Source: an uncultured Alphaproteobacteria bacterium (GTDB taxonomy: Bacteria; Pseudomonadota; Alphaproteobacteria; Rs-D84). Taken from it: a stretch of DNA of 64,000 bases. Position 1 is the first letter of the stretch. Each line of letters begins with the position of its first letter. Below are positions 6,890-42,025 of the stretch, piece by piece. Location of the stretch: the NCBI GenBank assembly GCA_951801825.1, contig CATOOF010000001.1, forward strand, positions 8,936-72,935, given 5' to 3'. The position numbers were made by a program, and so were the translations under genes. Below the pieces are notes generated by a model. The model did no database searches, was not told the origin of the DNA, and saw only the letters and a program-made list of their open reading frames with translations.

Positions 6890-6963
6890 TTTTTCTTACC
6901 TTTGCTTTGTTCTGACACTAACGTCCAGTTACCCCGGATTCTCTGCCAGAACGGTTTATTTTA

Positions 6964-10333: not shown

Positions 10334-10376
10334 AGTTTTCTCCTTAGGCTTTGCTTGTTTAGTTTAAAACTCTATT

Positions 10377-12458
10377 TTATTTTGTCAACTTTTTAATAAC
10401 TTCGTCTGCAACATTGGACGGCACTTCAGCATAGTGCGACAATTCCATGTACGGATTTGCGCGGCCCTGTGACAAAGAACGCAATGTCTTAACGTATCCG
10501 AACAGATTAGCCAGCGGTACGAACGCCGAAATCAGCTGGTTGCCGAACTGGGTTTCAATACCGTTAATCTGACCGCGGCGACTGTTCAGGTCCCCGATGA
10601 TGTCACCGACGTATTCTTCCGGAGTATTTACCGAAAGCTTCATAATCGGTTCCAACAACTTTGGCGAGGCCTTTTTCATCGCTTCGCGGAAACAGGCACG
10701 CGCCGCAATTTCAAAGCACAGAACATTGGAGTCAACTTCGTGATACTTACCGTCAACCAATGTTGCCTTGAAATCTACTGTGGGATAGCCAATCAGAACA
10801 CCTGTCTGCTGGGCTATCTTCAAACCCTTTTCAACGCCGGGGATGTATTCTTTCGGAATAGCACCACCAACAATCTTGTTATCAAACGAATATCCTTCGC
10901 CCGGTTCAACAGGTTCGAATTCAATCTTTACCTGAGCGTACTGACCCGAACCACCCGACTGTTTCTTGTGGGTATATTCTTCGGTAATCGCCTTGCGGAA
11001 GGTTTCACGATATGCAATGCGAGGTTCACCCACCGCAACGTCAACCTTAAATTCACGCAACAAACGGTCAACCAGAATTTCCAGATGCAGTTCGCCAACA
11101 CCCGCCAAAATTGTCTGGCCTGATTCTTCGTCAACGGATACACGGAAAGACGGATCTTCCTTAGCCAGCGCCTGCAGACCCAGGGACATCTTTTCAATGT
11201 CGGCCTTGGTCTTGGGCTCAACAGCGATGCTGATAACCGGTTCCGGAACGTGAATGTTTTCCAGAATAATCGGATTTGATTCGTCGCACAGCGTATCACC
11301 AGTAATGGTTTCTTTCATACCAACCAGCGTTACAATATCGCCCGCTGTTGCTTCTTTGATTTCTTCGCGGTTGTTCGCGTGCATCAGCAACATACGGCCA
11401 ACACGCTCACGCTTGTCGCGGTTGGAGTTATAAATATATGAACCAGATGTCAGCTTGCCCGAGTATACACGGATAAACATCAGGTTTCCAACAAACGGAT
11501 CATTTGCAACCTTAAACGCCAGGGCGCTGAACGGCTCATTTACGCTGGGCTTGCGCTCGGCCACGGTTTCACCGTCCATCTTGGTACCTTTAATAGCCGG
11601 AATATCCAACGGTGACGGCAGATAGTCAACAATAGCATCCAACAGCGGTTGTACACCCTTGTTCTTAAACGCCGAACCACACATTACCGGAACAAAATTC
11701 TGTGCAATTGTACCCTTGCGCAACAGCTTTTTGATTGTGTCATGGTCTGGTTCTGTGCCTTCCATATAGGCTTCCATTACCGCATCATCCAGTGTTACAA
11801 CTTCTTCAATCAAATGATTGTGCAGTTCTTCGGCCTTTGCCTTCAGCTCTTCTGGAATATCAACGATAATCGGGTTGCTGCCGTTTTCATCCTGCCATAC
11901 GATACCATTCATTTCCAGAACGTCAACAACGCCCTTAAAGTCGGATTCCGCACCAATCGGGAAATTCAAAACCAGCGGATTTGCACCCAAACGTTCACGA
12001 ATCATATCAACACAGCGGAAGAAGTTTCCACCGATACGATCCATCTTGTTAATAAAGCAGATACGCGGAACATTATAACGGTCAGCCTGGCGCCATACTG
12101 TTTCAGTCTGGGGCTGAACACCCGATACAGATTCAAATACAGCAACCGCACCGTCCAAAACGCGCAAAGAACGCTCTACTTCCATTGTAAAGTCAACGTG
12201 TCCCGGGGTATCAATCAGGTTGATACGATGATCACGCCAAAAGCATGTTGTCGCGGCAGATGTAATAGTAATACCGCGTTCCTGTTCCTGGGCCATCCAG
12301 TCCATTGTTGCGGCCCCGTCGTGCACTTCGCCGATTTTATAGCTTTTACCAGTATAGAACAAAATACGTTCCGACGTGGTGGTTTTACCAGCGTCAATAT
12401 GGGCCATAATGCCGATATTGCGGTACATATGTAAAGGAGCGGTTTTTCCAACAGACAT
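10377..12458 (-). CDS. fusA: Elongation factor G
   Basis: 693 aa with [17 protein letters not shown] and all EF-G domains. Confidence 0.97.
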
Positions 12459-13778: not shown

Positions 13779-14552
13779 TTAGAAATCAATACCGAATTTA
13801 GCACCAAATGCAAATCCGTCCTGAACTTCCCATTTGCCTTCGGCTTCATGTGACATTTCCTTGCCGACATATGCACCGACAAACTTTGTTTCATCGATGT
13901 TATAGTTCACACCGACTTTACCCGTCCATACACCCGGTTTGTCATCCCAGTTATCAGTATTGGTTGTATATTCAACACCGGCCACCAGGTTCCATTCGCT
14001 GCTAATCAGCACCTGACCATCGAGCCCAAAGCGCAACTGATGCAGACCCTCGTCATCCCAGTTAAAGGATTCTGTGTTGGCATAGTCAAACGCGATATGT
14101 CCTGCAACCGTCCAGCCATTGTCAGACACATAACCCGCACGCGCCCCCAATGTCCAGATATAATCTGTCGTGTCTTCATCCAAGAATGATACATGATCAC
14201 CCCAAACCGGTGTTACCGCATAAGAACCGAACAGGTCGCCCTTCCAGTTACCCATATCAATTGCACGATAATTCAGACCAAAGGATGTCATCCCCCAGTC
14301 AGCCGTATCAAACCAGTCTGTCTGCGATACATTTGTGGCCAAAACCACCGCCAGGCGGTTTGTAACACCATATGCAAATTCTTCGTTCAAACCAACTGTT
14401 TTGGTATCATTTGTATCAGACCCAACCGTTGTAATACTGTAAAACCGACCCTGGTCCGGACGATACAATGGATTGCCATCAATAATATTTGCCGCATGTG
14501 CGCCAGAAACCGCAAACACAGCCATCAACGAAGTTAAAACTAATTTTTTCAT
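13779..14552 (-). CDS. Outer-membrane beta-barrel protein (porin-like), function unknown
   Basis: Signal peptide MKKLVLTSLMAVFAVSGAHA, alternating aromatic/hydrophilic beta-strands, and a C-terminal …FGAKFGIDF ending in Phe. Confidence 0.6.
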   Translation of the reverse strand: MKKLVLTSLMAVFAVSGAHAANIIDGNPLYRPDQGRFYSITTVGSDTNDTKTVGLNEEFAYGVTNRLAVVLATNVSQTDWFDTADWGMTSFGLNYRAIDMGNWKGDLFGSYAVTPVWGDHVSFLDEDTTDYIWTLGARAGYVSDNGWTVAGHIAFDYANTESFNWDDEGLHQLRFGLDGQVLISSEWNLVAGVEYTTNTDNWDDKPGVWTGKVGVNYNIDETKFVGAYVGKEMSHEAEGKWEVQDGFAFGAKFGIDF

Positions 14553-18104: not shown

Positions 18105-18908
18105 ATGAAAAAATTAACAACAGCGTTCGCTGCATTCATCCTGGCAACCGGGGCATGCCATGGGGCCGTGGACACCAACACATATTACTATGGCGGCATT
18201 TTTTCAGAATGCACATCAAAATACATAAATGTTTACGGCATAGAAAGCCTGAACTATCGTGACAACTACTGGCGCCTGGTAACAAAAAATGGCTGGGGCG
18301 GCAGCAACTGCGCATTAAATGTTACCGCAGCATGTCAGGCCACACTTATAAACGTAATGGGCCTGCAAGAATTTAACGACAACAGTATAATAGGCGTATT
18401 AAGCAATATAATATGCTCTTGCCAGTCCGACAGCGATTGCGTAAGTGGATTTGAGTGTCAAAAAAACATCAAGGCACCATATGGCCAGTGTATCCAAATT
18501 TCAAACTATTGCACAAACAACGACCAATGCGACAATGAAAAAGGCTATATATGCATAAGCGGAAAATGTACGCAAAAATGTTATATCGACACCAAACCAG
18601 AAAACATTTACTGGGAAACGGTAAAGAAAGATTCAACATATAACGTACCAATGATTGAAAAGGAAAGCATTTATACATGCGCATCTTCTGGCTGGACCCA
18701 GACAACCAATTATCGCTGTGCGGCACATTATTACGGCACCCCAACATCAGCCACATCAACCTGTAACAGATGTCCGGCCTATCCGGGGCCGGCAACTTCT
18801 GCGCCTGGCTCTACCCTGCAAACAGACTGCTATATACCCAAGGGTACGCAATACGGCGATCAGACAGGCAGTTTTACAATCGTAAACAATGACTGCCATC
18901 ATGATTAA
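18105..18908 (+). CDS. Secreted cysteine-rich protein, paralog family member A
   Basis: Signal peptide MKKLTTAFAAFILATGACHGA; more than 25 Cys. C-terminal module …CNRCPAYPG…TDCYIPKGTQYGDQTGSFTIVNNDC is shared with the 18939 and 37093 genes. Confidence 0.6.
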   Translation: MKKLTTAFAAFILATGACHGAVDTNTYYYGGIFSECTSKYINVYGIESLNYRDNYWRLVTKNGWGGSNCALNVTAACQATLINVMGLQEFNDNSIIGVLSNIICSCQSDSDCVSGFECQKNIKAPYGQCIQISNYCTNNDQCDNEKGYICISGKCTQKCYIDTKPENIYWETVKKDSTYNVPMIEKESIYTCASSGWTQTTNYRCAAHYYGTPTSATSTCNRCPAYPGPATSAPGSTLQTDCYIPKGTQYGDQTGSFTIVNNDCHHD

Positions 18909-18916
18909 AAAATGAA

Positions 18917-18942
18917 CCGGGGACGATTGTCCCCGGCTTTAT
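18917..18942. terminator. bidirectional terminator between convergent Cys-rich genes
   Basis: CCGGGGAC-GATT-GTCCCCGG perfect hairpin with flanking A/T runs. Confidence 0.6.
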
Positions 18943-19445
18943 TCCGAATAATAGCATGGCGGCGAAAAGACAAAATCCCCCGACGTGTCTTTCCCAGATA
19001 CAGAATAACACTCTGTTATCTTTTTCGCACCCACGTCGCTGGTTCCTTCTTCATCTAAAGCGCCTACGAAATAAGCATTGCCGGGACATGCCTGACAATT
19101 TTTACCAGACCCGTAAAAACCCGCCTTGCATCTATATTGACAATACGTAACATTACAACGGGTTTCGTACGATGGCAGCCTTACAATACCGTTAGGGGCG
19201 CCCCACTCTGTCAGCCCCTTACATTCGTCATCACATTCCAGGTTTGGTTCAAAACCGCCGCCGCCATCAAAACACAAATCATTGCATCCGGCCGGACATT
19301 TCAAACATGATTCTGCCGTAACAGGCTCATATATGCCGGTTACCTCGTTCTTTTTATAACAGCATTGTACCAGCACCCCACCCAGCGCAACATTTTCCCA
19401 ACATAACGCCGCAACAACCACAACCCCCAGAACTTTCTTGATCAT
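18939..19445 (-). CDS. Secreted cysteine-rich protein, paralog family member B (start at MIKKVL; ORF extends to 19523)
   Basis: Signal peptide MIKKVLGVVVVAALCWENVALG. Module …CKAGFYGSGKNCQACPGNAYF…TECYSVSGKDTSGDFVFSPPC is parallel to member A. Confidence 0.55.
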   Translation of the reverse strand: MIKKVLGVVVVAALCWENVALGGVLVQCCYKKNEVTGIYEPVTAESCLKCPAGCNDLCFDGGGGFEPNLECDDECKGLTEWGAPNGIVRLPSYETRCNVTYCQYRCKAGFYGSGKNCQACPGNAYFVGALDEEGTSDVGAKKITECYSVSGKDTSGDFVFSPPCYYSE

Positions 19446-19585
19446 AAAACCACCGTTTGTTTTCGGCATTTTTTGGGGTTGACATATGGCGAAAATCTTG
19501 GATAAAATTGTATAAAAATACAATATAGGAAAACGGTCCTTTTAAATAGGCACCGTTTTTTTCATTCTAACAGATTGTTTGTGCA

Positions 19586-21368: not shown

Positions 21369-22376
21369 TTATATGTTCAGGCTGTTTATTTCATCAACCA
21401 GGTCATTCATATTTGCACGCAAATCTTCGGGGGCCGATGCCCACACCAGGTGTCGCATCATAAACTTGTGCACATCATCCATGGTCAGGTTTGGAATACC
21501 GGCGGCGGCGGCAACACGATGCCAACTGGCACGCGGATCGGTAAGCTTCATGCGACCACGCACAGAAAACACCCAGTTCCCATCCTGAGGCAAATCTTGT
21601 AACAACACCACCGCGGCATCTGACAATGGACGCGCGCCCCACATGTAATGATTAAAGTCCAAATCGGACCAGCGCATAGAAAACACCTGTGACTTTGGTG
21701 CGAATCCATAAATCAGCATTAAAAACGCGGCACGTAAAACCGGCGACGGCTCGGCATTGATGGCCGCAATCAGCCGAACAATTCCGGATTTAGTAAGCGG
21801 GCGAACGCGCCTGTGCTGAACCACGCGCTCCATTTTGGCGACCGGATTTTCCTTTGCATAGCCAGTCTCGATGGCATATTTAAAAATACTCTGGACCAGT
21901 TCCTGCATACGTCGTGCAATTGCCGGCCCGGGAATATTTTCAATCACGGCACAAACGTCATCATACGATATATCCGAAACATATTTATCCCGCAACCCGA
22001 CCAAATGCCGCTCAATACCGCGACGCAACTTTACCATTCCGTCTTCACTGCGACGAACGCGTGCCGCCAGATACATATCCGTCAGCCGTCCCATCGTTAT
22101 TTTACTGCGGCGCACCTTTGGTTTTTCTGCGGCACGCATTAATACCTCTGATACGCGACCGCGGGCCTGCTCAATATCCACATCAGGATAATTGCCAATA
22201 ATGATGCGCCGGTCATGCCCGCCTATTCTTTTTCGAACAAAAAAAGTTTTTATGCCGCGACTGGTAACATACATCCGCAACCGTGGTTCCGATATATCCT
22301 GGACAACATCGAACCCCTTGTTCGGCGCCGGCAGATTATCCAGGATATAAGGGTTAAAGAAGAATTGATGCGCCAC
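21369..22376 (-). CDS. Tyrosine-recombinase (P4-type integrase)-like protein, probably degenerate
   Basis: N-terminus …NLPAPNKGFDVVQDISEPRLRMYVTSRGIKTFFVRKRIGGHDRRIIIGNYPDVDIEQARGRV… matches the arm-binding DUF4102 domain of P4-like integrases. The C-terminal region lacks a recognisable HxxR…Y catalytic box, and at 335 aa it is shorter than typical family members. Confidence 0.5.
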   Translation of the reverse strand: MAHQFFFNPYILDNLPAPNKGFDVVQDISEPRLRMYVTSRGIKTFFVRKRIGGHDRRIIIGNYPDVDIEQARGRVSEVLMRAAEKPKVRRSKITMGRLTDMYLAARVRRSEDGMVKLRRGIERHLVGLRDKYVSDISYDDVCAVIENIPGPAIARRMQELVQSIFKYAIETGYAKENPVAKMERVVQHRRVRPLTKSGIVRLIAAINAEPSPVLRAAFLMLIYGFAPKSQVFSMRWSDLDFNHYMWGARPLSDAAVVLLQDLPQDGNWVFSVRGRMKLTDPRASWHRVAAAAGIPNLTMDDVHKFMMRHLVWASAPEDLRANMNDLVDEINSLNI

Positions 22377-25577: not shown

Positions 25578-26150
25578 ATGAAACTTGTTGAATCAATTCT
25601 TAAAAAATCTGAACATCCGGCCTATGCATGGATAGTTTTTGTTTTAACAGTATGCGAATCGATATTCCTGTTTGTCCCGCCAGAGGTTTTTATGACCCCG
25701 CCTATTATTGCGAACCGCCGACGTGCGATTCCGATTACGATTGCGGCGGCGGCCGGTTCGCTGGTCGGCGGCGCAATTGCATATTTGATTGGATACTGGC
25801 TGTTTGACTCGGTCGGACTGTGGCTGATACAAAATTTTGCCACGATGGAAAAATTTGAAATGGCCCAGGCGTTATTTATAAAGCATGGTCTGTTTATAAT
25901 TGTCCTGACCGCGTTTACCCCTATTCCGTACAAGCTGATGGCAATATGCGCAGGATTCATGGGATTCCCGGCGGCATTGTTCTTAGGCGTATCGGCGGTA
26001 TTCCGCACGGCGCGTTTTGCCATCGTCGCAGCGTTACTGTGGCGTTTCCAGGAACAGGCAAACACCATCGTAAAAAAATATTTCTGGCCACTTACCATGT
26101 TTGCAATTATTGCGGCAGGACTGGGCATCGGCCTGATGATGCTGTTATAG
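25578..26150 (+). CDS. YqaA/DedA-superfamily (VTT-domain) inner-membrane protein
   Basis: 190 aa with 4-5 TM helices and an …FVPPEVFMTPP… motif. Confidence 0.55.
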   Translation: MKLVESILKKSEHPAYAWIVFVLTVCESIFLFVPPEVFMTPPIIANRRRAIPITIAAAAGSLVGGAIAYLIGYWLFDSVGLWLIQNFATMEKFEMAQALFIKHGLFIIVLTAFTPIPYKLMAICAGFMGFPAALFLGVSAVFRTARFAIVAALLWRFQEQANTIVKKYFWPLTMFAIIAAGLGIGLMMLL

Positions 26151-26321: not shown

Positions 26322-27560
26322 TTATTCAACCCATATGGTCGCGGTTGCAGTACCCGTGGTTCCCACCGGAATAACCCCCAGTTTTGCCACACCAATCGCA
26401 TCACGTGTTGCAGATACACCCGATACATTCACAGATGTACCACTTACCGTGGCCGATACACCATTTGAACCGCTGGCCGTATACGTTGTATTATTATCAG
26501 TTAACTCGATTGTTGCGGCGGTGGCCTGGTTCGCCGTAAAAGTACCCTTAACAGCCCCCCCCTGTTTAATAGTAAGCGTGGCGTTATTTACCGTCGGAAC
26601 ATTTATCGTTCCCTTTGTGACGGAAATTTTACCGTCTGTCTGGCTAACATTCGTAACGACATTACCCGTCGCGCTAGACTCTGCAACATCCAGTGCATTT
26701 ATCGCATTTGTAATATCACCCGGGGTCGCCGCGGTAACACCCTTTGTAACTGTAAGCGCACCGTTATTTGCCGTAATTGCCGAAACAACGTTTCCGGCAC
26801 CGGTTGTTGTCGCCGTTGTAACTGTATTTGTATCTGTTCCAGATACTGTTATAACCCCAGATGCATCCTTGGTCACAGTAACACTGCCGGAACCTTTAAT
26901 ATTACCATTACTGCCCGCGGTCAATGTATCCTGCTTGCCCGTGGCATAATTATTGTATTGGGTTACTTTGTCCGCCGTAATACCGGAATTAAGAGCGGCC
27001 TGCTGAGCAGAACTCATCGTGGTCCATGCACCATTGGGACCACCCATCTGGTAATTTGCAGTGGATTTAACCTGATACACATTCTTGGCGGCCGCAACGG
27101 CGGCATCCCCCATTGCGGCGGCAATTTCCTCTGCCACCTTTACAGAAGGAATACGCGCATCATTGTCTGTATGCAGGGTGTCATATGTATTAATCGTATC
27201 TATGTTAATCTTTGTCGGGGCAATTGCGGCAGATGCAGAAATATCCGCATTTACAATCGTGCCATCTGCTATATCCCCAGATGTCACAGAACTTTTACCC
27301 GCCAATGTACCTAATGCCGGCTTGTTCTTTATCTGTCCCATGCCGGATGTTGCGTTCCAGTCGGGCTGAACCTGTGCCGCTGGAATATCTGGCTTGTTCG
27401 TCAAATCATTATAAGAGCCAGACGTCGCCACCGGTGCCAAGTTACCTTCTGTGCCCAAACGTTTGTTTAACAGCGTGGTTGATACAACCTCTGCACGGGC
27501 CGGTATCACAGACACAATTGCGATAAAAGAAACTGCAAAAATACCAGCTATATTCCTCAT
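26322..27560 (-). CDS. Secreted surface-fibre protein with phage-tail-fibre-type repeats
   Basis: Signal peptide, then …SGSYNDLTNKPDIPAAQVQPDWNATSGMGQIKNKP… Thr/Gly/Ala-rich beta-rich body. Shares the …NDARIPSVKVAEEIA… motif with the neighbouring gene. Confidence 0.55.
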   Translation of the reverse strand: MRNIAGIFAVSFIAIVSVIPARAEVVSTTLLNKRLGTEGNLAPVATSGSYNDLTNKPDIPAAQVQPDWNATSGMGQIKNKPALGTLAGKSSVTSGDIADGTIVNADISASAAIAPTKINIDTINTYDTLHTDNDARIPSVKVAEEIAAAMGDAAVAAAKNVYQVKSTANYQMGGPNGAWTTMSSAQQAALNSGITADKVTQYNNYATGKQDTLTAGSNGNIKGSGSVTVTKDASGVITVSGTDTNTVTTATTTGAGNVVSAITANNGALTVTKGVTAATPGDITNAINALDVAESSATGNVVTNVSQTDGKISVTKGTINVPTVNNATLTIKQGGAVKGTFTANQATAATIELTDNNTTYTASGSNGVSATVSGTSVNVSGVSATRDAIGVAKLGVIPVGTTGTATATIWVE

Positions 27561-27672
27561 AACCTAAAAACTCTCTACCCGTCTTATATTATCACAAATC
27601 CCCACTTCAACACAAGGTCATATATGGCGTAACCATATCTTTTTTGAATTACGCCATATATTCCGCCCTATG

Positions 27673-28914
27673 TTAACGTCCAATCGTTTCCCAAACATAT
27701 GCGCCGTTGCGGAACAATAACGCACAGCCCGCTTCAGAAGTTTCACAATTCGTACCGGGTTTTGGAATTGCATTATTTGCCTTGGCCAGTGCGCTGTCCG
27801 CCGTATCCTGGGCATCTGACGCCGCAGTATTTGCCTGGGTGGCCGCGGCTTGCGCCGTGGTGGCCTTGCCGCCTACTTCCTTTATCGCGGCGACAACGGT
27901 TGTCGCGGTTGTTCCCATATTTGTCGCAGAAACATCTCCAACCTCTGCATCATAGGTTGCGGTTGGTAACTTAGTTCCCAGTCCAGATGTTGTGCTTTCA
28001 ATCGCCGTCTTGTTTGCATTCGCCGTTGCGGCCGCGGCCTGGACCGCCGCATCATTTGATGTTTTATATGTGTCTAAGGCCGCCGCGGCATCGGTTCCCG
28101 CCTTTTTGGCCGTAGCCACCGCCGCATCTGTCTCTGTTTTTGTATATGCGTCACCAATATTATAGCCCGCCAATGTAGTGGCTTTATCCGCCTTGCCTTC
28201 AACCGCGGTGTTTATTGCATCAACCGCAACCTTAATTTTATTATCAACACTGCCATCAACAGTATCTGCCGCATTCAAGGTTGCAATCGCATCGGTGTTT
28301 GTCTTGATTGCATCAATTTTTTCCTTTGTTGCACCAGAGACCATAACCGCACTGTTATTAATGGCAGTAATCGCGGACGTATTTTCTGCAATGTCCGCCT
28401 TTAGTTCTGTATCATCATATGTCGCGGCTGTTTTTGCATCATCAATTAACTCAACAACCGTCTTGTCTGCGGGTACGGTACCGATTGTCTTATTAATTGC
28501 ATTATCTGCCGCGGTACGCGCCGCTATCTCGTCATCAATTCTTGTGCCCAATGCGGTATCCGCAGATGTACGTGCCGCTGATTCTGCATCCATCTCTGCC
28601 TTGGTAAGACCTTTGTTACTGGCCGTCAATGGCGTAACAAAATCTTCCTTTTTTCTTGAATAGATATTTGCAGCCGCCGTTACCGCCGCATCAGCCGATG
28701 CACTGGCAATGTCTTCGGCAACTTTTACTGTTGGAATACGTTCATCATTATCAGCATTGCTGGTATTATAAGAAGACATGTTGTCAATTTTCAACGTATC
28801 CTGTTTTGTTTTGGCAATATCATCAACATACGTTGTTGATGCAATATCCGCACGTGCCGCACCAACCGCCAAAAACGCCGCCAGAGAAGCTACCAAAAAT
28901 CCTGCTCTTTTCAT
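27673..28914 (-). CDS. Secreted Ala/Thr-rich coiled-coil surface protein (paralog)
   Basis: Signal peptide MKRAGFLVASLAAFLAVGAARA, then DIASTTYVDDIA…, then …NDERIPTVKVAEDIA…; a long coiled-coil; C-terminal IPKPGTNCETSEAGCALLFRNGAYVWETIGR. Confidence 0.55.
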   Translation of the reverse strand: MKRAGFLVASLAAFLAVGAARADIASTTYVDDIAKTKQDTLKIDNMSSYNTSNADNDERIPTVKVAEDIASASADAAVTAAANIYSRKKEDFVTPLTASNKGLTKAEMDAESAARTSADTALGTRIDDEIAARTAADNAINKTIGTVPADKTVVELIDDAKTAATYDDTELKADIAENTSAITAINNSAVMVSGATKEKIDAIKTNTDAIATLNAADTVDGSVDNKIKVAVDAINTAVEGKADKATTLAGYNIGDAYTKTETDAAVATAKKAGTDAAAALDTYKTSNDAAVQAAAATANANKTAIESTTSGLGTKLPTATYDAEVGDVSATNMGTTATTVVAAIKEVGGKATTAQAAATQANTAASDAQDTADSALAKANNAIPKPGTNCETSEAGCALLFRNGAYVWETIGR

Positions 28915-29015
28915 AATATATGATACCTAAATAATTTTATCCGCTATGTGATGCGTTGCACGCATCTACTGTACCCGGCGGTCGTTTATCCAACCACCGG
29001 GATTTTTTTTATAAC

Positions 29016-29831
29016 TTAAACGCCCGGCGTCGGTGCTGGTGCTGGGTCTGCACGTTCAATTTGTTCCCATTTCAAGGTCGCAACATCGCCAAGGGTCTTG
29101 ATGGTTAAAACATATGTTCCATCTTCGCCTGTTGTCGTAACCTTTTTAATGGATTCGTTCAGCGCCTGTGTCGCATCAGCCTGGGCTTTTTCAACCGCCG
29201 TGTTCAATGCGGTATCTGCCGCTTTATACGCAGTGTCCAATGCACCAATCGCATCAGCGTTAGCTTTTTCTGCTGCTGTTGCACGGTCCGTTTCAACCTT
29301 TACCGCGTTGGCAATATCTGTTGCAACCTGTGTTTTATCCGCCTTGTCAGAAACAGCTGTATCAATAGCGTCTTTGATTGCACCCTCTTCCGCAGTAATA
29401 GAGTTTGTAATAATTGTTTTAACCTGGTCCTGTGTTACTTTGCTAGTATTCAATTCATTGATTGCCTCGGTCAGTGTTTTATTCGTTGTCCCCAGTTCGG
29501 CTGTTCCAACCGTCCCCTCCAACGCACTAATATCATCCTCGGCCGTATATAAGCGCGCATCAATATCCTTTAAATCCGCCGCCGAAGCCTTGGAATCCAA
29601 TGCCTTGGATATTTCCGATGTATCGCTGTTCAGTTCTTCTGTAATCCGATTGGTAATTGTTGTGTTAATACCGTCGCGAAATTCCGTAACAGTTGATTCC
29701 AACGTTGTGACGCTACCCTGTACTTTGCCAATTTCTTGATCAACATAGGCCCTGGATGTAACGGCCGCATTTGCATCGACTGCAACCAAGCCCAACAGAA
29801 CTGTAAAAATACCAGTTGTAAGTTTTTTCAT
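29016..29831 (-). CDS. Secreted coiled-coil surface protein (paralog)
   Basis: Signal peptide; N-terminal AAVTSRAYVDQEI motif; heptad-rich Thr/Ala/Asp body; Pro-rich C-terminus. Confidence 0.5.
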   Translation of the reverse strand: MKKLTTGIFTVLLGLVAVDANAAVTSRAYVDQEIGKVQGSVTTLESTVTEFRDGINTTITNRITEELNSDTSEISKALDSKASAADLKDIDARLYTAEDDISALEGTVGTAELGTTNKTLTEAINELNTSKVTQDQVKTIITNSITAEEGAIKDAIDTAVSDKADKTQVATDIANAVKVETDRATAAEKANADAIGALDTAYKAADTALNTAVEKAQADATQALNESIKKVTTTGEDGTYVLTIKTLGDVATLKWEQIERADPAPAPTPGV

Positions 29832-29868
29832 AATTTTTTCCTTTCCTTAAACTTTATTTATCTGAAGA

Positions 29869-30693
29869 TTAATCTGCCGGAGTAACCGTGCTTTCCAGCG
29901 GCGCCGTAACATCCAGCCACATCAGGCTATTACCGGCTGAATCGACCGACAGAACACAGCGTCCCGACTCTGCGGCACAGGACCCTGTCGGTTTCGGTAT
30001 CGCCAGGTCAATAATTTTAGCGTTTGCTTCTTCCTTTGTATAAACATCGGCTACGTTGGCCTTTTTATCCAGTTCAGTTTTTAACGTGCCAGATTCAACA
30101 GATTTATCAATTGCGTCGGTCACAACATCGCCATTGCTGACAATTGTGGTAATAATTTCTTTTACGGATTCATTTTGTTCCAATGCATTCGTAATCTTTT
30201 CCGTAACGGTTGCATTTGTTACCAAATCCGCCGCCGCCACAGTACCCGCGACATAATTACCGGTTGCATCAATTGTTGCGATATTGCCGGCCTTGATTGC
30301 TTCGCCCGTCAGCTTGTCTGCCTTGCCTGCGACATCCGTTTCCAGTTGTCCAACAGTTGTATTCAAATTATTAACAGTTGTGCTAATCTGGTTTACAGTC
30401 GATGTATCCGCCTTTGTGTCCAGTGCCTGGTCAATGGCTGTTTTCAGTTCACTGTTTTCAGACTGCAGTTCGTTTGTAATATTTGTTACGATAACATCCT
30501 GCAACTGCTCTGTTTTAGTATAATTGTTTTCAATTGTTGTCTGCAGTTCCTTAACATCTGTCGAAACCTTGTTATCAACATATTGTTTGCTTGCGATTTG
30601 AGGCGCCGCCGATGCACTGGCAATCCCAGCACTTACCATTATAGCCGCTGCAAATCCGGAAAAAGCGACATTCTTTACTTTCATTTTTTTCAC
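29869..30693 (-). CDS. Secreted coiled-coil surface protein (paralog)
   Basis: Signal peptide; …QIASKQYVDNKV… motif; DVYTK-type repeats; C-terminal …IPKPTGSCAAESGRCVLSVDSAGNSLMWLDV…. Confidence 0.5.
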   Translation of the reverse strand: MKKMKVKNVAFSGFAAAIMVSAGIASASAAPQIASKQYVDNKVSTDVKELQTTIENNYTKTEQLQDVIVTNITNELQSENSELKTAIDQALDTKADTSTVNQISTTVNNLNTTVGQLETDVAGKADKLTGEAIKAGNIATIDATGNYVAGTVAAADLVTNATVTEKITNALEQNESVKEIITTIVSNGDVVTDAIDKSVESGTLKTELDKKANVADVYTKEEANAKIIDLAIPKPTGSCAAESGRCVLSVDSAGNSLMWLDVTAPLESTVTPAD

Positions 30694-30741
30694 TTCCTTT
30701 TTTTACACTTGGCCCAAGGGCCGTTTATAATGATTTGACAG

Positions 30742-32592
30742 TTACTCTGTAACCACTTCAAACCAGCCCTTTTGACCATTGCTAATCGCCAGTACGAAAT
30801 CACCTTCTTCTGGTGCGCCTTCGACAGTAACCGCCTGGTCCGCCTTTGTCAGCGATGCCTGAACATCCGCCGCCAATTTCGTTTTTGCAATTGCCGCATC
30901 ATCTGCAACATCTGCATTTGTAATTGTGTCTTTTGCCGCCAATGTGCCCAAATCTTCTGTTTTGGCATATCCGCTTAAGTCTATATTGCCGGCCTCTACA
31001 ACCGCATCCTCAAGCGCTTTTTTAGTTGCAAACTTTTCATCAGCCGCTGATTTCGTATAAACATTTTCCGCATCAGCCTTTAACGCCAGCGACGTTGTTG
31101 CCGCATCAGCCGCCGTCTTGGCCGCATCGGCCTTATCGGATGCCGTTCCTGCCGCCGTCAATGCGGACGCCGCCACACCAGATGCCGCATCGGCCGCTGT
31201 TTTTGCGGCCCCGGCTGTTGATACCGCCAACGCCGCATCGGCAACCGCGCCGCTAACATCGACCGCCATTTCATCAACATCAGTCGCCAGTGTATTTACA
31301 CGCCCCTCCAGAGCGGTTACCGTTGCGCCTTTTGCATAATCGGCCAAATCGGTAACATTTGCCTTTTTCTCAAGCGCAGTGTTAACATCAGCCGTTTTGG
31401 CATATTCGGATAAAGCCGCACTCATGTCGCCTGCAACAATATCGGCAACTTTCTCGTCAACCTGGGTCTTTGTGTAAACATCTGCAGATTTTGCATAATC
31501 AGCCAGAGATTGGTGCTCTGTCAGATACTTTGCATCTGACTGGCCCTTTGTGTAAACATCCGAAACATTCGCCTTGTCCGCCAGCGCCGTATTAACCCAT
31601 GCCTTAGGTGCAAGATCCGCAGTTGCGTTTGTAATGCTTTCTTCTACCGCCGTTTTCGTGGCATACGCCGCCAGCTGTGTCTTGTCCGCCTTGTCAGACA
31701 ATGCATTGGCCATTTCGGTCGATGTAACATGCCCCGCATCCGCAATTGCTGTTTTAATCGCCTGATTCATTTGCTCTGTTGTGGAATACTTAGCGGAATC
31801 AAGGCCCTCGCCCGGGTCACCCTTGTCACCCTTTTCACCTTTCTCGCCCGCCGGGCCCTGGGGACCGGTTAAGCCTTGGGGCCCCTGGGGGCCGACCAGC
31901 TCACTAATTGCAATCAAATCCTGCCACTGGGTATCGCCGACATAGCGCCACTGAATATGGGTTGCATTCTTAGAAATCTCAACCTCGCGGCCATTTGCAC
32001 CAACAATGGTTTCCAGCCCGTCTTTCAGCGCATCTATATTCAGGAAAATTTCATCATCTTCTATTTCAATATAGCCATCGCCCGTCAACACATTTTGCTT
32101 GTCTGCAAAAAAACCGTCTATTTCATCATTTGTGTACAAAGCACCAACCTGGGATTCAAGTTCGCCAACACGGTCTGTCAATGCGCCGGCAATTCCTGGA
32201 TCCATGGAACCACCGCCACTGTTGCTAACGCCGCTGCCCGGTTTTTGATTTTTGATAGAACTGCCCCCACTGACAGATGTGCCGCCACCCAAATATTTGC
32301 CAATAGACAAACGTGGCGCGGTTGCAACACGGCCCGTCGTTGCCGTACCGCGATTTGAAGACCCAGACGCAGACGCCCCGCCAGCCGACGGCGCCACGCG
32401 CATTGATCCCGCGCGCACTGCGTTTATGGCCCCACTGGGGGCGCCGCCACCCGCGGCCGCAGATGATGCACTGGAATACGTTCCTGCCCCCCCTAACGAC
32501 CGCACCGACGCGGCCCCAAAAGCGCCCGATATCGCCGATGTGCACAAAACACAAACAACTGCCAATCGTGATATTTGAACTCTGTTTTTCAT
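30742..32592 (-). CDS. Secreted collagen-like-repeat surface-fibre protein (start at MKNRVQ; ORF extends to 32631)
   Basis: Signal peptide; Gly/Ser-rich linker; …IQWRYVGDTQWQDLIAISELVGPQGPQGLTGPQGPAGEKGEKGDKGDPGEG (10 GXY triplets); then about 300 aa of KADKTQL/DVYTK-type repeats. Confidence 0.6.
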   Translation of the reverse strand: MKNRVQISRLAVVCVLCTSAISGAFGAASVRSLGGAGTYSSASSAAAGGGAPSGAINAVRAGSMRVAPSAGGASASGSSNRGTATTGRVATAPRLSIGKYLGGGTSVSGGSSIKNQKPGSGVSNSGGGSMDPGIAGALTDRVGELESQVGALYTNDEIDGFFADKQNVLTGDGYIEIEDDEIFLNIDALKDGLETIVGANGREVEISKNATHIQWRYVGDTQWQDLIAISELVGPQGPQGLTGPQGPAGEKGEKGDKGDPGEGLDSAKYSTTEQMNQAIKTAIADAGHVTSTEMANALSDKADKTQLAAYATKTAVEESITNATADLAPKAWVNTALADKANVSDVYTKGQSDAKYLTEHQSLADYAKSADVYTKTQVDEKVADIVAGDMSAALSEYAKTADVNTALEKKANVTDLADYAKGATVTALEGRVNTLATDVDEMAVDVSGAVADAALAVSTAGAAKTAADAASGVAASALTAAGTASDKADAAKTAADAATTSLALKADAENVYTKSAADEKFATKKALEDAVVEAGNIDLSGYAKTEDLGTLAAKDTITNADVADDAAIAKTKLAADVQASLTKADQAVTVEGAPEEGDFVLAISNGQKGWFEVVTE

Positions 32593-32652
32593 AACTCTCT
32601 CTATACCTGTCAATGATATCAAATTACGCAAACCGCAACAACATTTTTCTGG

Positions 32653-33387
32653 TTAAAATTCATACCTGATACCAAAAGATACCGAATTATCCAAAATCAT
32701 GCCTGTTTTGCTTTTAAAGCCATATACATTGTCATCGGTGTCTTGGAAGCCCAGCTTTAATTCAGCCCCGGTCATACCGGCCAAACGATACCGCAAATCC
32801 AGCACCAGATTTTCATCCAGCTGATGCGTCCACCCCAGCATCAGTCCCGCCATCGGCGACAGTGCCGTTTTAGTCTTGTCATAGCCGTTGAAATAATCAC
32901 CGCTTATCTTATAATTGGACAACGCCGCACCAACACCCGCGCCGACATACAGCCCGTTCGTAAAGTCATAATATCCGTTCAGCATAACATACGGAATCGA
33001 CAGCGAAAATTTTGCAACCGCATCTTCGTCGCTGAAATAGCCCAAATATCCGCCTTCCAGTTCCGCGCGCCAGAAATAGTTAATTTTCTTACCCGCCGCA
33101 ATCGAGCCGCCGAACACAGGCTCAAACGAATATTTATCCTCGCTATGGCTTTCATCCGCGCTGAACCCCTCAGAAACACTGTATTCGTTCTTGAAATTCA
33201 GCAGGCTCAGTTCTGCACGCCCAGTTATATACCAGCCTGTTTTTGCTTTGTCCTTATAATTATATGTAACATCGTATCCACCGCGGCCGTCTCTTGAAAT
33301 ATGACTGGGCTGTGCGGTGCGCACCGCCGCAAAAGACGGCACGACAAATAATCCCATCAAAACACTTACTGACACTAATTTTTTCAT
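32653..33387 (-). CDS. Outer-membrane beta-barrel protein (OmpA-N/Opa-like small barrel)
   Basis: Start at MKKLVSVSVLMGLFVVPSFA signal; alternating beta-strand pattern; C-terminal …VSFGIRYEF. Confidence 0.6.
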   Translation of the reverse strand: MKKLVSVSVLMGLFVVPSFAAVRTAQPSHISRDGRGGYDVTYNYKDKAKTGWYITGRAELSLLNFKNEYSVSEGFSADESHSEDKYSFEPVFGGSIAAGKKINYFWRAELEGGYLGYFSDEDAVAKFSLSIPYVMLNGYYDFTNGLYVGAGVGAALSNYKISGDYFNGYDKTKTALSPMAGLMLGWTHQLDENLVLDLRYRLAGMTGAELKLGFQDTDDNVYGFKSKTGMILDNSVSFGIRYEF

Positions 33388-33524
33388 GAAAATACCCCTC
33401 CATTTATTCCTTAAGTATATCATAAAAAAGGATATGCTCCAACAACAAAAAACAGATATTGACCGTTTTCTCTTTTTCTGCTACGTTTTTAGCATACTAA
33501 TTGTACACGGAAAGAGGTAACAAC

Positions 33525-33929
33525 ATGAAAAACTGTTTGCTTTTATGCACTGCATTAACATTGGCGGCATGCAGTGGCGCGAAGATGCCATCCGACATAA
33601 ACGAAGAAAAAGTATTTTTTGCTTTTGACTCGGCCGATGTGACACAGGAAATGGCACGCAACCTGCAGGGCCAGTCGCTGTATATGAAAAAACACCCCGA
33701 CATCAATGTCACCATGGAAGGTCATTGCGACGAACGCGGTTCTACGGAATACAATCTGGCGCTGGGTGCACTGCGTGCCGGCAACGCCGCACACGTTTTA
33801 ATAAAAGACGGAATTGAACCGTCACGCGTAAAAACAATATCATACGGCAAGGAACGCCCCCAGTATTTTGGCACAGGCGAAAAGGTCTGGTCAAAAAACC
33901 GCAACACGACAACGCGCGTAGACAAATAA
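33525..33929 (+). CDS. pal: Peptidoglycan-associated lipoprotein (OmpA-family C-terminal domain)
   Basis: Lipobox LTLAAC; OmpA-like domain (…FFAFDSADV…GHCDERGSTEYNLALGALRAGNA…); ATG at 33525 preceded by GAAAGAGG. Confidence 0.85.
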   Translation: MKNCLLLCTALTLAACSGAKMPSDINEEKVFFAFDSADVTQEMARNLQGQSLYMKKHPDINVTMEGHCDERGSTEYNLALGALRAGNAAHVLIKDGIEPSRVKTISYGKERPQYFGTGEKVWSKNRNTTTRVDK

Positions 33930-37092: not shown

Positions 37093-37839
37093 ATGGCGGC
37101 ACGACACAGATTTTATTTACTTATTGCGGGATTGGCCTCTTGCGCCATGATGAATAAAAGCCACGGAAAAGACATAGGCTACACAATCGGCGAAGTATTG
37201 TATTCCAGCCCATACTGCGCATCCCCGGCATCGGGGGATGGCGATACCCCATGCCAAGTTTGCGTCCCATCCAGAATAGCCTATGATAAATGCAACTATA
37301 GCACCAGTTGCATTGACAACTGGATAAACGACGAAAACATTTGCATTGATAACACATGCAGCAGCTACAACGGCACCAGCAACATACATTATGGGGGCGC
37401 ATACGGAAAAAATTCTGGCGGCGGATTTTATATTTGCGACGACTATAGCGGGTGGAAATATTCCGCAACCCAGCCTGACACAAATCCGGACAATTGCTCT
37501 AACCAATATGACGGCAACCACGGTCATCTTATAAATTGTTGTGATTTTGATCCGGATGCAGGCATCGGCGGTTCATGGTGCCCATCAGGATACGATCGTG
37601 AATACTGTGACAGCGGCTATTACGGCGGATTCAATAACTGCGCCCAATGCCCCAGTGGTCCAAACTATGTTACCGGCCCAATCAACGATTACTCCCCCCA
37701 GGGACCAATATCTGGAAAATCAAGCGAATCCGGAAACTATTCAAAAAACAAATGCTATATTCCGCCACTGGGCGGCTCTGAACACTACATGGACAGCACG
37801 GGCCAATATGTATTTACCAGCAACTGTTATTGGAGCTGA
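37093..37839 (+). CDS. Cysteine-rich lipoprotein, paralog family member C
   Basis: Lipobox-like LIAGLASC; module …CDSGYYGGFNNCAQCPSGPNYV…KNKCYIPPLGGSEHYMDSTGQYVFTSNC parallels members A and B. Confidence 0.55.
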   Translation: MAARHRFYLLIAGLASCAMMNKSHGKDIGYTIGEVLYSSPYCASPASGDGDTPCQVCVPSRIAYDKCNYSTSCIDNWINDENICIDNTCSSYNGTSNIHYGGAYGKNSGGGFYICDDYSGWKYSATQPDTNPDNCSNQYDGNHGHLINCCDFDPDAGIGGSWCPSGYDREYCDSGYYGGFNNCAQCPSGPNYVTGPINDYSPQGPISGKSSESGNYSKNKCYIPPLGGSEHYMDSTGQYVFTSNCYWS

Positions 37840-41913: not shown

Positions 41914-42025
41914 TAGAAATCTCCTTATATATTCTACTAACGGTTGAATTATATCACAAAAAAAGCCACGCTCCAAATAAAAAACAGGCGCATATCGCGC
42001 CTGCATAAAATTGTCCGGAAACAAA

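Follow-up and report, generated by a model that had tools for sequence, protein, structure and literature searches.

The window, meaning the whole 64-kb stretch of DNA that was analysed, is core chromosome, with a ribosomal protein operon and the EF-Tu/EF-G, fabF/acpP, lepA, pal, tolB, ftsE, dnaN, gyrB and dnaA genes. The larger open reading frames (ORFs) with a Pfam family match are housekeeping genes, and dnaA, dnaN and gyrB are found within 35 kb. LicD and GT92 glycosyltransferase-like genes occur elsewhere in the window. The DNA comes from a gut alphaproteobacterium of reduced genome, a relative of Candidatus Enterousia (order Rs-D84).

Five co-oriented genes for fibre proteins with signal peptides, W1 to W5, occupy positions 26322-32631 behind an outer-membrane beta-barrel gene. 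The four siblings upstream of W1 and the outer-membrane protein gene were absent from the first-pass annotation. With its boundary genes, the conserved locus consists of:

33501-33929, plus strand: divergent pal-like gene for an OmpA-domain lipoprotein (lipobox LAAC; Pfam OmpA, E 1.8e-17), syntenic, left boundary
32653-33423, minus strand: W6, outer-membrane beta-barrel gene (OMP_b-brl), first of the array (PF13505, E 7.9e-7, 29.8 bits against a cut-off of 28.7)
30742-32631, minus strand: W5, 629-aa sibling with signal peptide, Gly/Ser-rich conserved N-region, small beta domain, collagen run, long rod and hairpin ...GDFVLAISNGQKGWFEVVTE
29869-30693, minus strand: W4, 274-aa sibling, the most conserved fibre, with invariant termini and a hypervariable middle
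29016-29831, minus strand: W3, 271-aa sibling with signal peptide, AVTSRAYVD start, helical rod and hairpin ...YVLTIK...LKWEQIER
27673-28914, minus strand: W2, 413-aa sibling with signal peptide, Ala/Thr-rich coiled-coil-like rod and C-terminal Cys-x6-Cys hairpin ending VWETIGR
26322-27560, minus strand: W1, exported fibre protein, last gene of the array, a 412-aa ORF with the C-terminal end ...IPVGTTGTATATIWVE
25578-26150, plus strand: dedA (VTT domain; Pfam VTT_dom, E 6.4e-12), syntenic in all relatives examined, right boundary

W6 lies 21 nt upstream of W5, is constant in position and has 78-82% identity in close relatives. All of W1 to W5 have a hydrophobic N-terminus and an A-x-A site, and exactly two cysteines, 2-7 residues apart, are found in the C-terminal hairpins of W2, W4 and the orthologues of W1 to W4. 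Alignment of W4 showed an invariant N-terminus, MKVKNIAFSGF...IASKxYVD, and an invariant C-terminus, IPxPxxxCxxxSGRCVLSVD...W.DVTxPL; among the listed matches of its 242 homologues no Pfam domain was present and the only informative name was 'hypothetical protein'. The AlphaFold2 (AF2) monomer of W4 (pLDDT 71.8) consists of helical segments and a terminal beta-hairpin. A Foldseek search of this model against the PDB returned nothing at E<1, as expected because it is a monomer model of an extended fibre. The collagen run of W5 comprises 10 Gly-X-Y triplets and is kept in its orthologues with 12-14; the Pfam Collagen match (E 1.9e-4) reached 21.6 bits, below the cut-off of 27.2, and the stretch made up of the collagen run and the part before it is matched by PHROG tail-fibre families. 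The fibres have very short conserved termini, and no anchor domain could be recognised in them.

W2 and one orthologue gave weak matches to the Lpp/OprI alanine zipper (E 0.012-0.036, below cut-off). W2 as an alanine-zipper lipoprotein of this type was rejected, as it has no lipobox and scored 14.8 bits against 23.1 in Pfam and 16.1 against 43 in NCBIfam. The PADLOC matches of the siblings (JetC, LmuB) were likewise discarded as weak coiled-coil noise. When the array was scanned for DNA repeats, the matches were all short and driven by composition and none was an inverted repeat, which was taken as no sign of invertible or DGR-type variation, and promoter and terminator scans of the array stayed at background level.

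Modular make-up of W1

W1 had been described as a Thr/Gly-rich protein of 412 aa with a signal peptide, and this description is confirmed, the mature protein containing 16.2% T, 14.4% A and 10.3% G. A classical signal peptide is followed by ...SGSYNDLTNKPDIP-AAQVQPDWNATSGMGQIKNKP. The N-terminus, MRNIAGIFAVSFIAIVSVIPARA before EVV, has a basic n-region, a hydrophobic core of 16 residues and an A-x-A site; inspection found neither a lipobox Cys nor a twin-Arg motif, and the hydrophobic N-terminus and A-x-A site are kept by members of the family. Homologues of W1 in public assemblies number 435, including P0001 at 99% identity. Its parts are arranged along the minus strand as follows:

27492-27560, minus strand: signal peptide, residues 1-23, MRNIAGIFAVSFIAIVSVIPARA, predicted from the sequence to be cleaved after ARA
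27261-27458, minus strand: phage-fibre-type module 1, residues ~35-100, with A unit ATSGSYNDLTNKPDIP, B unit AAQVQPDWNATSGMGQIKNKP and then LGTLAGKSSVT
27207-27290, minus strand: second short fibre motif, residues ~91-118, ...SVTSGDIADGTIVNADISASAAIAPTKI, matched by TPA2 gp46
27066-27200, minus strand: backbone common with the paralogue W2, residues ~121-165, TYDTLHTDNDARIPSVKVAEEIAAAMGDAAVAAAKNVY, from global alignment of the N-termini
26496-26600, minus strand: phage-fibre-type module 2, residues ~321-355, PTVNNATLTIKQGGAVKGTFTANQATAATIEL, with phage-type matches
26325-26393, minus strand: family-defining C-terminus, residues ~390-412, GVAKLGVIPVGTTGTATATIWVE, with ends of the IWV[EQ] type

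The motifs of module 1 had been placed at 27335-27440. This interval translates in frame on the minus strand to LAPVATSGSYNDLTNKPDIPAAQVQPDWNATSGMG, and the quoted stretch SGSYNDL...IKNKP corresponds to residues 47-81, at 27318-27422, so that a shift of ~18 nt had cut off the final QIKNKP. The motifs had also been called repeats. NKP occurs in W1 at residues 55 and 79 only, giving one A unit and one B unit, each motif once, within a stretch of ~85 residues that is absent from W2. Global alignment showed the N-terminus of W1 to be a W2-type N-terminus plus these ~85 extra residues, which hold the phage-type modules.

The presence of phage tail-fibre-type motifs in the ORF itself, as claimed at first, was upheld. 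A tblastn search of 50,697 phage genomes with W1 found 37 matching phage records, the best being Ralstonia phage phiRSL1 ORF188, a 'tail fiber protein', with 62.3% identity over 61 aa (E 9e-15). Synechococcus phages contribute 29 records, most of them, among the matches listed, annotated as tail fibre or tail-fibre-like, and many cyanomyoviruses have tail fibres that match module 1. Over 45-60 aa, residues ~35-100 have 62-80% identity with phage-type proteins. The 'tail fiber protein' gp46 of Tsukamurella phage TPA2 matches the DISASAAIAPTKI stretch of W1 with 82% identity over 28 aa, and the motif at residues ~91-118 recurs in paralogues and orthologues. By sequence comparison, the match between the W1 module and phage tail fibres is far beyond chance.

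Residues 36-100 were further searched with phmmer against 1.84 billion representatives, which gave 9,426 proteins at E<=1e-3, a lower bound that counts protein clusters at 50% identity, and 3,722 at E<=1e-10. Elsewhere the NKP module usually occurs in 5-30 tandem copies: phage-type matches have 3-16 NKP copies by regular expression and up to 32 matched stretches, phiRSL1 ORF188 has more than 12 tandem copies of the unit, and the phage protein P0010, encoded directly after a Phage_portal gene, has 10+8 copies and also carries module 2 of W1. With E values from 1e-40 to 1e-143, multi-copy relatives match the 'tail fiber protein' family PHROG 9729. The sole profile match of W1 is PHROG 17509, of unknown function (E 8.4e-6, residues 40-147). 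No Pfam family was found for W1 at E<=0.1, and the NCBIfam and PADLOC scans of W1 gave no match. The Pfam check proposed earlier, against Phage_fiber_2, was negative; the reason is that this model stands for a different repeat, and the result does not make the resemblance false. Neither Pfam nor NCBIfam has a model for the YxDLxNKP / DWN...ILNKP unit. Spurious matches of the unit to unrelated Pfam families were noted. The Pfam family PTR ('Phage tail repeat like') was considered as a model of the unit and rejected, as the one multi-repeat protein that it matched was matched on a different, HxH-type repeat. A full-text literature search for NKP motif strings found no relevant paper.

Searches against solved structures gave chance-level matches only, both for the multi-repeat protein P0012 against PDB sequences and for W1 by phmmer against all PDB chains (two matches, E 0.078 and 0.51, neither a MAT protein, for which see below). 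The AF2 monomer of W1, built from a 33-sequence alignment, had a pLDDT of 52.9 and a pTM of 0.20 and was judged unusable. The NKP unit is among the more abundant fibre repeats in sequence space, with at least 9,426 clusters, and no solved structure is related to it by sequence; a curated model of the unit would improve the annotation of phage as well as surface proteins.

Only residues ~35-100 and ~321-355 of W1 are common with viral proteins. This was seen in a coverage map corrected for composition, the uncorrected map being swamped by low-complexity alignments. At >=45% identity, module 1 (residues 41-90) is common to ~50-70 of the 73 non-IWVE matches and module 2 to 38 of the 73. IMG/VR loci match W1 in one module or the other only, one locus covering residues 277-361, and no IMG/VR protein spans the family-specific parts. 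The remainder of W1 places it in a cellular family whose members keep the signal peptide and end in ...IPxGxxxxxxxAxIWV[EQ]. An IW[VI][EQ] end is present in 44 of the 120 best W1 matches, among which most of the 34 distinct C-termini contain IPxG...AxIWV[EQ]. On the reading favoured below, the YxDLxNKP / DWN...IKNKP unit of W1 is a single shaft module, a building block and neither a binding domain nor a prophage relic.

Synteny and turnover of the fibre genes

Ten related metagenome loci (L001, L002, L005, L006, L007, L013, L024, L027, L028 and L029), including Candidatus Enterousia, are syntenic, with the order pal-OMP-[3-5 fibre genes]-dedA-rbfA-lepA. In the window, tolB lies ~6 kb beyond pal. 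Positional orthologues of W1 were found in L001, L002, L005, L006, L007, L013, L027, L028 and L029, and IWVE-type proteins take the last slot of the array in every context examined. The first-pass statement that no phage genes are adjacent is true: the larger ORFs of the 64 kb were scanned, and none proved to be a capsid, portal, terminase, tail tube, baseplate or lysis gene.

Compared with the neighbouring genes, those for the fibres evolve 3-10 times faster, and their cassettes are swapped. In relatives where the neighbours have 90-98% identity the fibres have 29-84%, being alignable only in part, and close species differ greatly in the length and content of their fibres. Against L005, W1 has an almost unchanged C-terminal half, which in L002 is replaced. 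The dN/dS of the fibre genes is 0.09-0.30 versus 0.02-0.06 for housekeeping genes, with dS near saturation; as the values for the fibres are well below 1, they give no sign of positive selection, only of faster evolution.

Comparison with known fibre systems

The closest analogues of the W1 array are the mosaic adhesive trimer (MAT) fibres of Bdellovibrio bacteriovorus, which are chromosomal and not prophage-derived, carry a signal peptide and resemble phage tail fibres (Caulton et al. 2024, PMC10769870). Bdellovibrio must recognise other cells, and its MAT fibres show modular 'tip swapping' with several paralogues per genome (PMC10769870). The MATs possess a beta-rich domain, conserved and ~130 aa long, right after the signal peptide, and many have an S74 chaperone-protease; their genes, 21 per genome, are dispersed, and surface location and glycan binding were shown experimentally (PMC10769870). 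Like the MATs, W1 has a signal peptide, as read from its N-terminus. Unlike them, W1 has ~20 residues between the cleavage site and the NKP module and no S74, its family-wide conserved N-terminal stretch measures ~10 aa against the ~130-aa MAT domain (the MATs being compared by description), and residues 24-140 show no beta domain in the low-confidence AF2 model. W1 had no phmmer match to the solved MAT fragments in the PDB (Bd2133, Bd3182, Bd1334 and others). Furthermore, the 3-5 fibre genes of the array share a single operon with that for an OMP, whereas MAT genes are scattered. Membership of the MAT family is unsupported for this array, which is known here from its genes.

Direct sequence homology links W1 residues ~35-100 with the phage NKP-shaft proteins (phiRSL1 ORF188 and cyanomyovirus tail-fibre-like proteins; PHROG 9729, 17509). 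Those proteins carry 5-30 tandem copies, lack a signal peptide and are encoded in virion modules, whereas W1, with its single A unit and single B unit, has a signal peptide and is encoded in the core chromosome. The array may also be likened to the YadA/BadA trimeric autotransporter adhesins, which are Sec-dependent, trimeric and rod-like in Gram-negatives, with modular, fast-evolving stalks. W1 differs from them in having no C-terminal YadA-type beta-barrel anchor and no head, neck or stalk domains by Pfam and NCBIfam, and its C-terminus is an IPVG...IWVE hairpin of ~23-25 residues ending in W-V-E, not the aromatic beta-signal of autotransporters.

The layout of W2 to W5, judged from the AF2 model of W4, is like that of T4 fibritin, with helical segments followed by a C-terminal beta-hairpin of ~25 residues with a conserved Trp. 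Through the C-terminal plan that they have in common, the comparison extends to W1. The IPxP...G.YVL....G..W..V pattern of the sibling hairpins presumably resembles the sequence of the T4 fibritin foldon. This likeness is without statistical support (hhalign probability 0.4%; a profile of ten C-termini against the PDB came back empty), the sequences being too short for statistics, and the sibling hairpins often have a disulfide. T4 fibritin is a virion protein assembled in the cytoplasm.

Proposed export and display, and competing explanations

The reading we favour, with some confidence, from the sequence features is that W1 is exported by Sec and is a fibrous, probably trimeric protein of the envelope, encoded last in a lineage-wide pal-OMP-[3-5 fibres]-dedA operon. 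Each fibre would comprise a conserved signal peptide, a short mature N-terminus, conserved as the IASxxYVD type though degenerate in W1, then a rod that varies and a C-terminal beta-hairpin of ~25 residues, the rod being composed of coiled-coil segments, beta-hairpin units, the collagen run of W5 and short phage-tail-fibre-shaft modules. In the proposed mechanism, the fibres would be exported by Sec and cleaved at the A-x-A site, trimerisation would start from the C-terminal hairpin, which in W2 and W4 would hold a disulfide, and the trimers would be displayed on the cell envelope with the co-transcribed outer-membrane protein, so that the variable rod and C-terminal half could contact partner or host cells or other surfaces. 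The C-terminal half would be exchanged between species as a cassette. Signal-peptide cleavage, trimer formation, surface location and an attachment function are thus what we infer for the fibres, and the surface exposure and binding of W1 in particular are suggested by how fast the fibres evolve, by their swapped cassettes and by the proposed lifestyle of the lineage.

The first-pass annotation had called W1 a secreted adhesin and not a prophage gene. The second half holds, given the core chromosome and the ten syntenic loci; of the first half, Sec export and a fibre-like nature stand by the conserved signal peptide and A-x-A site, the two-Cys hairpins and the collagen run, and adhesion is the conditional part discussed here. 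It is very improbable that W1 belongs to a degraded prophage, gene transfer agent or tailocin as one of its structural genes, an ordinary tail fibre that stayed behind in the chromosome. Its phage-type modules, the PHROG tail-fibre matches of W5 and an integrase-like gene 4 kb away would fit such an origin, but the scanned ORFs lack phage structural and lysis genes, all five fibres carry signal peptides, which are absent from virion proteins assembled in the cytoplasm, and IMG/VR holds no protein covering the family-specific parts of W1. A prophage origin argued from the integrase-like gene was discarded, this being a conserved core gene, syntenic with the locus in the ten related loci and under purifying selection (dN/dS ~0.05).

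A less distant competitor, still unlikely, is that W1 to W5 stay in the periplasm or serve as structural fibres of the envelope and do not act as external adhesins. They might, for example, be trimeric struts or tethers of coiled-coil type from the inner membrane or peptidoglycan to the outer membrane, and would work with the adjacent OMP and Pal and with TolB, encoded nearby, in a lineage without Lpp. Five Sec signals with no outer-membrane translocation machinery nearby (the window showed no secretion system that could carry a fibre across the outer membrane), the core-genome position of the array, fixed between pal and dedA and following an OMP gene, the weak Lpp/OprI matches of W2 and its orthologue and a dN/dS below 1 all speak for it. 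Indeed, the adjacency of pal, the distance of ~6 kb to tolB and the weak alanine-zipper matches of W2 fit a periplasmic structural role equally well. Against it, the zipper scores are far under the cut-off and a lipobox is absent, the width of a periplasm would be greatly exceeded by rods of 230-680 residues (estimated at ~0.15 nm per residue), such variation in length and content between close species would be unusual in a structural strut, and the modules are those of phage receptor-binding fibres. Somewhat less likely again, the array could form a general fibrillar coat, S-layer-like or glycocalyx-like, that is protective and not a specific attachment device, for example by hiding receptors from phages or from the immunity of the host, perhaps in the manner of a decoy made of phage-fibre modules. 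The Thr/Ala/Gly-rich composition, the several co-expressed fibre types, the LicD and GT92 genes and the rapid turnover of exposed sequence would suit a coat, but defence-system models gave weak coiled-coil noise only, Pfam and NCBIfam showed no S-layer or SLH-type domains, and the retention of ~6 kb in a lineage of mostly <1 Mb, apparently partner-dependent, favours a role in interaction.

Rs-D84/Enterousia genomes are mostly <1 Mb, without respiration, flagella or standard transporters, and have been proposed to be partner-dependent (PMC12306168). W1, as an exported fibre, may be a means by which these bacteria attach to other cells. A bolder and tentative proposal is that the pal-OMP-[3-5 fibre genes]-dedA array is an Rs-D84/Enterousia organ for attachment to partner cells, made from parts of phage receptor-binding fibres given Sec signals. 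If this is true, the parts permanently adopted by a cellular lineage would be the NKP shaft units, NATLTIKQGG units, the collagen run and the foldon-like hairpin, and the array would be a core-genome, multi-fibre recognition apparatus whose specificity is reset by C-terminal cassette swaps and whose fibres cross the outer membrane by an undescribed route involving the small co-transcribed beta-barrel protein. The finding extends the Bdellovibrio MAT idea, recognition fibres from phage tail-fibre parts, to a different phylum, with an architecture that also differs from that of the MATs, the fibre genes sharing an operon with one for an OMP and the conserved termini being very small. In conclusion, the fibre operon is kept in every relative examined while evolving through cassette exchange, and for the uncultured Rs-D84/Enterousia these 6 kb are a concrete, testable candidate for the partner-contact apparatus.

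The W1 motif and its phage counterparts

The 412-aa protein W1 is encoded by an ORF on the minus strand (26322-27560), within which the interval 27335-27440 (-) translates in frame to LAPVATSGSYNDLTNKPDIPAAQVQPDWNATSGMG; the complete motif peptide quoted in the first-pass annotation corresponds to residues 47-81 (27318-27422), its coordinates having been displaced at either end by some 18 nt. As read from the sequence, the N-terminus, MRNIAGIFAVSFIAIVSVIPARA followed by EVV, carries Sec/SPase-I signal features and neither a lipobox nor a twin-arginine motif, and the mature protein left by the predicted cleavage contains 16% Thr, 14% Ala and 10% Gly. The phage-type part comprises an A unit (YxDLxNKP type) and a B unit (DWN...IKNKP/ILNKP type), here called NKP units; since each type occurs once, the earlier term "repeats" is inaccurate for W1. 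When residues 41-121 were searched by tblastn against 50,697 phage genomes, 37 records matched, 29 of them from Synechococcus phages, with tail fibre or tail-fibre-like annotation in most of those listed. ORF188 of Ralstonia phage phiRSL1, annotated 'tail fiber protein', matched at 62.3% over 61 aa (E 9e-15) and contains more than a dozen ATSGxYxDLxxKP units in tandem plus one AAQVNSDWNSTGGLSQILNRP unit; the tail fibre gp46 of Tsukamurella phage TPA2 matched the neighbouring DISASAAIAPTKI stretch at 82% over 28 aa. Judging from these alignments, the W1 motif is a unit found in phage fibres, and the annotation of a phage tail-fibre-type motif in a signal-peptide-bearing chromosomal protein was borne out by them and by the in-frame peptide.

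Among 1.84 billion representative proteins, W1 residues 36-100 matched 9,426 at E<=1e-3, 3,722 at E<=1e-10 and 560 at E<=1e-30 (phmmer); the number of matched stretches in one protein reached 32. PHROG 9729 'tail fiber protein' was matched by 10/10 top hits scanned (E 1e-40 to 1e-143), and an Mtd_N domain was present in two of these ten. The NKP fibre repeat is very abundant (at least 9,426 clusters) yet uncurated: no Pfam or NCBIfam model covers it, and the HMM search of W1, Pfam tail-fibre models included, gave no match in either at E<=0.1. The sole profile match was to PHROG 17509, of unknown function (E 8.4e-6, residues 40-147), and PDB sequence searches returned no related solved structure. 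Tandem NKP arrays in P0010, P0012, P0243, P0250, P0257, P0288 and other database proteins score above threshold for Pfam PBP1_XylR (PF22177), Pet20 (PF08692) and EBNA2_N (PF25697), matches that are almost certainly spurious. By a crude hydrophobicity screen, signal-like N-termini occur in 19 of 147 repeat-rich NKP representatives, so that a signal peptide with an NKP array is not a unique combination; such proteins exist beyond the host lineage too.

W1 is a mosaic. Among its 120 best database hits, 44 end in IW[VI][EQ], with C-termini mostly of the form ...IPxG(S/T)xxxxxxAxIWV[EQ], and most of these IWVE-type proteins have a signal-like hydrophobic N-terminus and 0-2 motif units. Of the other 76, most have no signal peptide and contain multiple motif units (by regular expression, as many as 16), many having a DUF6712 domain at the start or ...TVTKTVWLQ at the end; in this group, the P0010 gene directly follows a Phage_portal gene and the P0028 gene lies inside a tightly packed phage-like module. 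In a composition-corrected coverage map, only residues ~35-100 and ~321-355 (PTVNNATLTIKQGGAVKGTFTAN...) are common to W1 and the non-IWVE group, the remainder being specific to the signal-peptide/IWVE family, and in IMG/VR the 10 loci found with W1 have matches confined to residues 36-151 or 277-361. Aligned with W2, the adjacent fibre protein, W1 has a W2-type N-terminus plus ~85 extra residues holding the phage-type modules; the common backbone consists of the signal peptide, ...STT... and ...ID..sY.t..DNDxRIPxVKVAExIA....

The fibre array and its chromosomal setting

W1 is not alone, as four more co-oriented ORFs lie upstream with gaps of 112, 101, 37 and 48 nt, preceded in turn by an outer-membrane protein gene:

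27673-28914, minus strand: W2, signal-like N-terminus, fibrous composition
29016-29831, minus strand: W3, signal-like N-terminus, fibrous composition
29869-30693, minus strand: W4, signal-like N-terminus, fibrous composition
30742-32631, minus strand: W5, signal-like N-terminus, fibrous composition
32653-33423: W6, OMP_b-brl outer-membrane protein gene, 21 nt upstream of W5

W1-W5 are distant paralogues with one common plan, in which an A-x-A cleavage site and (I/V)(A/T)SxxYVD (degenerate in W1) are followed by a variable rod and a ~25-residue C-terminal hairpin; this holds the sole conserved Trp and frequently a Cys-x(2-7)-Cys pair, there being no other cysteines in the mature proteins. The run of Gly-X-Y triplets in W5 (10, and 12-14 in its orthologues), together with the hairpin, argues for predicted trimers. 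An AF2 model of W4 (39-sequence alignment, pLDDT 71.8) shows a helix chain and two beta-hairpins, the first internal and the second terminal. After its signal peptide, W5 has a Gly/Ser/Ala-rich conserved region (residues ~1-150) with no family match, which might serve to anchor the array; within this region, the motif GRVATxPRLSIGKYLGGGTSVSGGSSIKNQKPG is preserved in the W5 orthologues of L002 and L007.

Outside the array, the window is core chromosome: ribosomal protein genes, EF-G, EF-Tu, S7, YceG and tRNA-Pro; acyl-CoA ligase, FabF, ACP, LepA, RimI, RbfA and DedA; Pal, FtsE/X, PlsC, LicD, TolB, aldolase, EF-P and PPase; DnaN, CdaA, AsmA, an RluD-type synthase, UvrC, DnaJ, GyrB, DnaA and DprA. 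Other features are as follows:

21369-22376, minus strand: integrase-like ORF, Arm-DNA-bind_3 and Phage_int_M; catalytic-domain match E 2.4e-4, below cut-off
41566-42159, minus strand: 197-aa ORF near tolB, TrbC/VirB2 pilin match E 1.4e-4, 22.5 bits against a 27.9 cut-off
46357-47475, 56173-58152, 60560-61846: dnaN, gyrB and dnaA, within ~35 kb of the fibre operon
13779-14552, 18939-19523, 51458-51922, 55421-56023, 58830-60341, 63269-63988, minus strand: sizeable ORFs without Pfam family
18105-18908, 37093-37839, plus strand: sizeable ORFs without Pfam family

In all related loci examined, the integrase-like ORF occupies the interval separating lepA from acpP/fabF; its identity is 61-84%, and a dN/dS of ~0.05 points to purifying selection. 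Being syntenic and conserved, it was rejected as a prophage marker and is more likely a tyrosine-recombinase-like gene that was domesticated or belongs to the core genome. The 197-aa ORF may encode a type IV secretion pilin-like protein. From the proximity of dnaN, gyrB and dnaA and a GC skew negative over nearly the whole window, the fibre locus is placed near the replication origin, where gene dosage is high. For the 267-aa ORF 18105-18908 (+), NCBIfam gives only a weak Cys-rich-repeat match, and a 267-residue gene is also called at the corresponding position of the related locus L001.

Conservation and exchange among relatives

The order pal-OMP-[fibre genes]-dedA-rbfA-(rimI)-lepA-(x)-int-like-acpP-fabF is conserved, with minor local variations, in the related loci L001, L002, L005, L006, L007, L013, L024, L027, L028 and L029, with three fibre genes in L029, four in L013 and L028, and five in the window, L002, L007 and L027. 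These relatives comprise gut MAGs labelled 'Alphaproteobacteria bacterium' and Candidatus Enterousia, which has been placed in the uncultured order Rs-D84; for this group, Begmatov et al. (PMC12306168) describe genomes mostly below 1 Mb that lack flagella, respiration and standard transporters, and propose that the bacteria depend on partner cells. L029, a Candidatus Enterousia MAG, is 83% (FabF), 90% (LepA) and 80% (FtsE) identical to the window. Every IWVE-type protein with context examined occupies the last slot, adjoining dedA, and in L024, from a more distant relative, this slot (10001-11569) holds P0018, which ends in a Cys-hairpin and has 7 A and 5 B units. Since last-slot fibres carry NKP units, in one to at least seven copies among cellular fibres, the module is a standard component of the last fibre and varies in copy number, as would be expected of a length-setting shaft module. 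P0362 is another signal-peptide fibre with several NKP units.

Between the window and its closest relatives, the housekeeping neighbours are 90-98% identical, while the fibres are 29-84% identical and often only partly alignable; Nei-Gojobori dN/dS is 0.09-0.30 for fibre genes versus 0.02-0.06 for housekeeping neighbours, with dS near saturation. Comparison of W1 with its L005 orthologue puts pN at 0.12-0.18 in the N-terminal half, which has diverged, and at 0.01-0.03 in the C-terminal half, with pS similar in the two. This near-invariant C-terminal half is replaced by unrelated sequence in L002, a case of cassette exchange between relatives. In L005 (WSMU01000003.1, 4421-9162), the W1 orthologue and dedA are present in two identical copies, separated by a chimeric ORF (6418-7143) with ~40 unrelated N-terminal residues and a W2-type C-terminus; this doubling may be an artefact of assembly, or else the last fibre gene has truly been duplicated in tandem.

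Proposed role of the fibres

In the best-supported reading, W1 and its siblings would be exported by Sec, processed and assembled into trimeric fibres of the cell envelope, made of a cellular scaffold and short modules that phages use in fibre shafts; the fibres would most likely be attached and exposed on the cell surface, with their variable parts contacting other cells or surfaces. The nearest functional precedent is the Bdellovibrio MAT superfamily, trimeric, phage-tail-fibre-like, signal-peptide-bearing fibres that the predator displays on its surface and whose tips can be swapped (PMC10769870). W1 was rejected as a MAT member, however, since it has neither the MAT-defining ~130-aa N-terminal domain nor the S74 module of many MATs, does not match solved MAT fragments in a PDB search, and belongs to an array unlike MAT genes in organisation. 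It was also rejected as a trimeric autotransporter for want of a beta-barrel anchor. The C-terminal hairpin resembles the T4 fibritin foldon, a suggestive likeness that failed every statistical test run (PDB profile search, hhalign and Foldseek with the W4 model).

A prophage or GTA remnant is effectively excluded by a locus syntenic in relatives and by the absence of capsid, portal, terminase, tail and lysis genes among the ORFs scanned in the 64-kb window; with the signal features and the core-chromosome setting, the first-pass view stands that this chromosomal gene does not belong to a prophage and encodes an exported, fibre-like protein, and of its "secreted tail-fibre-like adhesin" export and fibre-likeness hold, adhesion being a function that we infer. 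No secretion system able to carry a fibre over the outer membrane lies near the locus, whose only conserved companion is W6, the small beta-barrel protein. A rival reading is a periplasmic or structural role, to which the adjoining pal, the nearby tolB and weak alanine-zipper matches point; in another, the fibres would make up a protective coat. Among these, surface-displayed envelope fibres are the best-supported reading, and the main interest lies in the NKP repeat and in the conserved operon of fibre genes as a whole, in a lineage that is genome-reduced and apparently partner-dependent: because ~6 kb of fibre genes is retained in such a genome, their function would be important.
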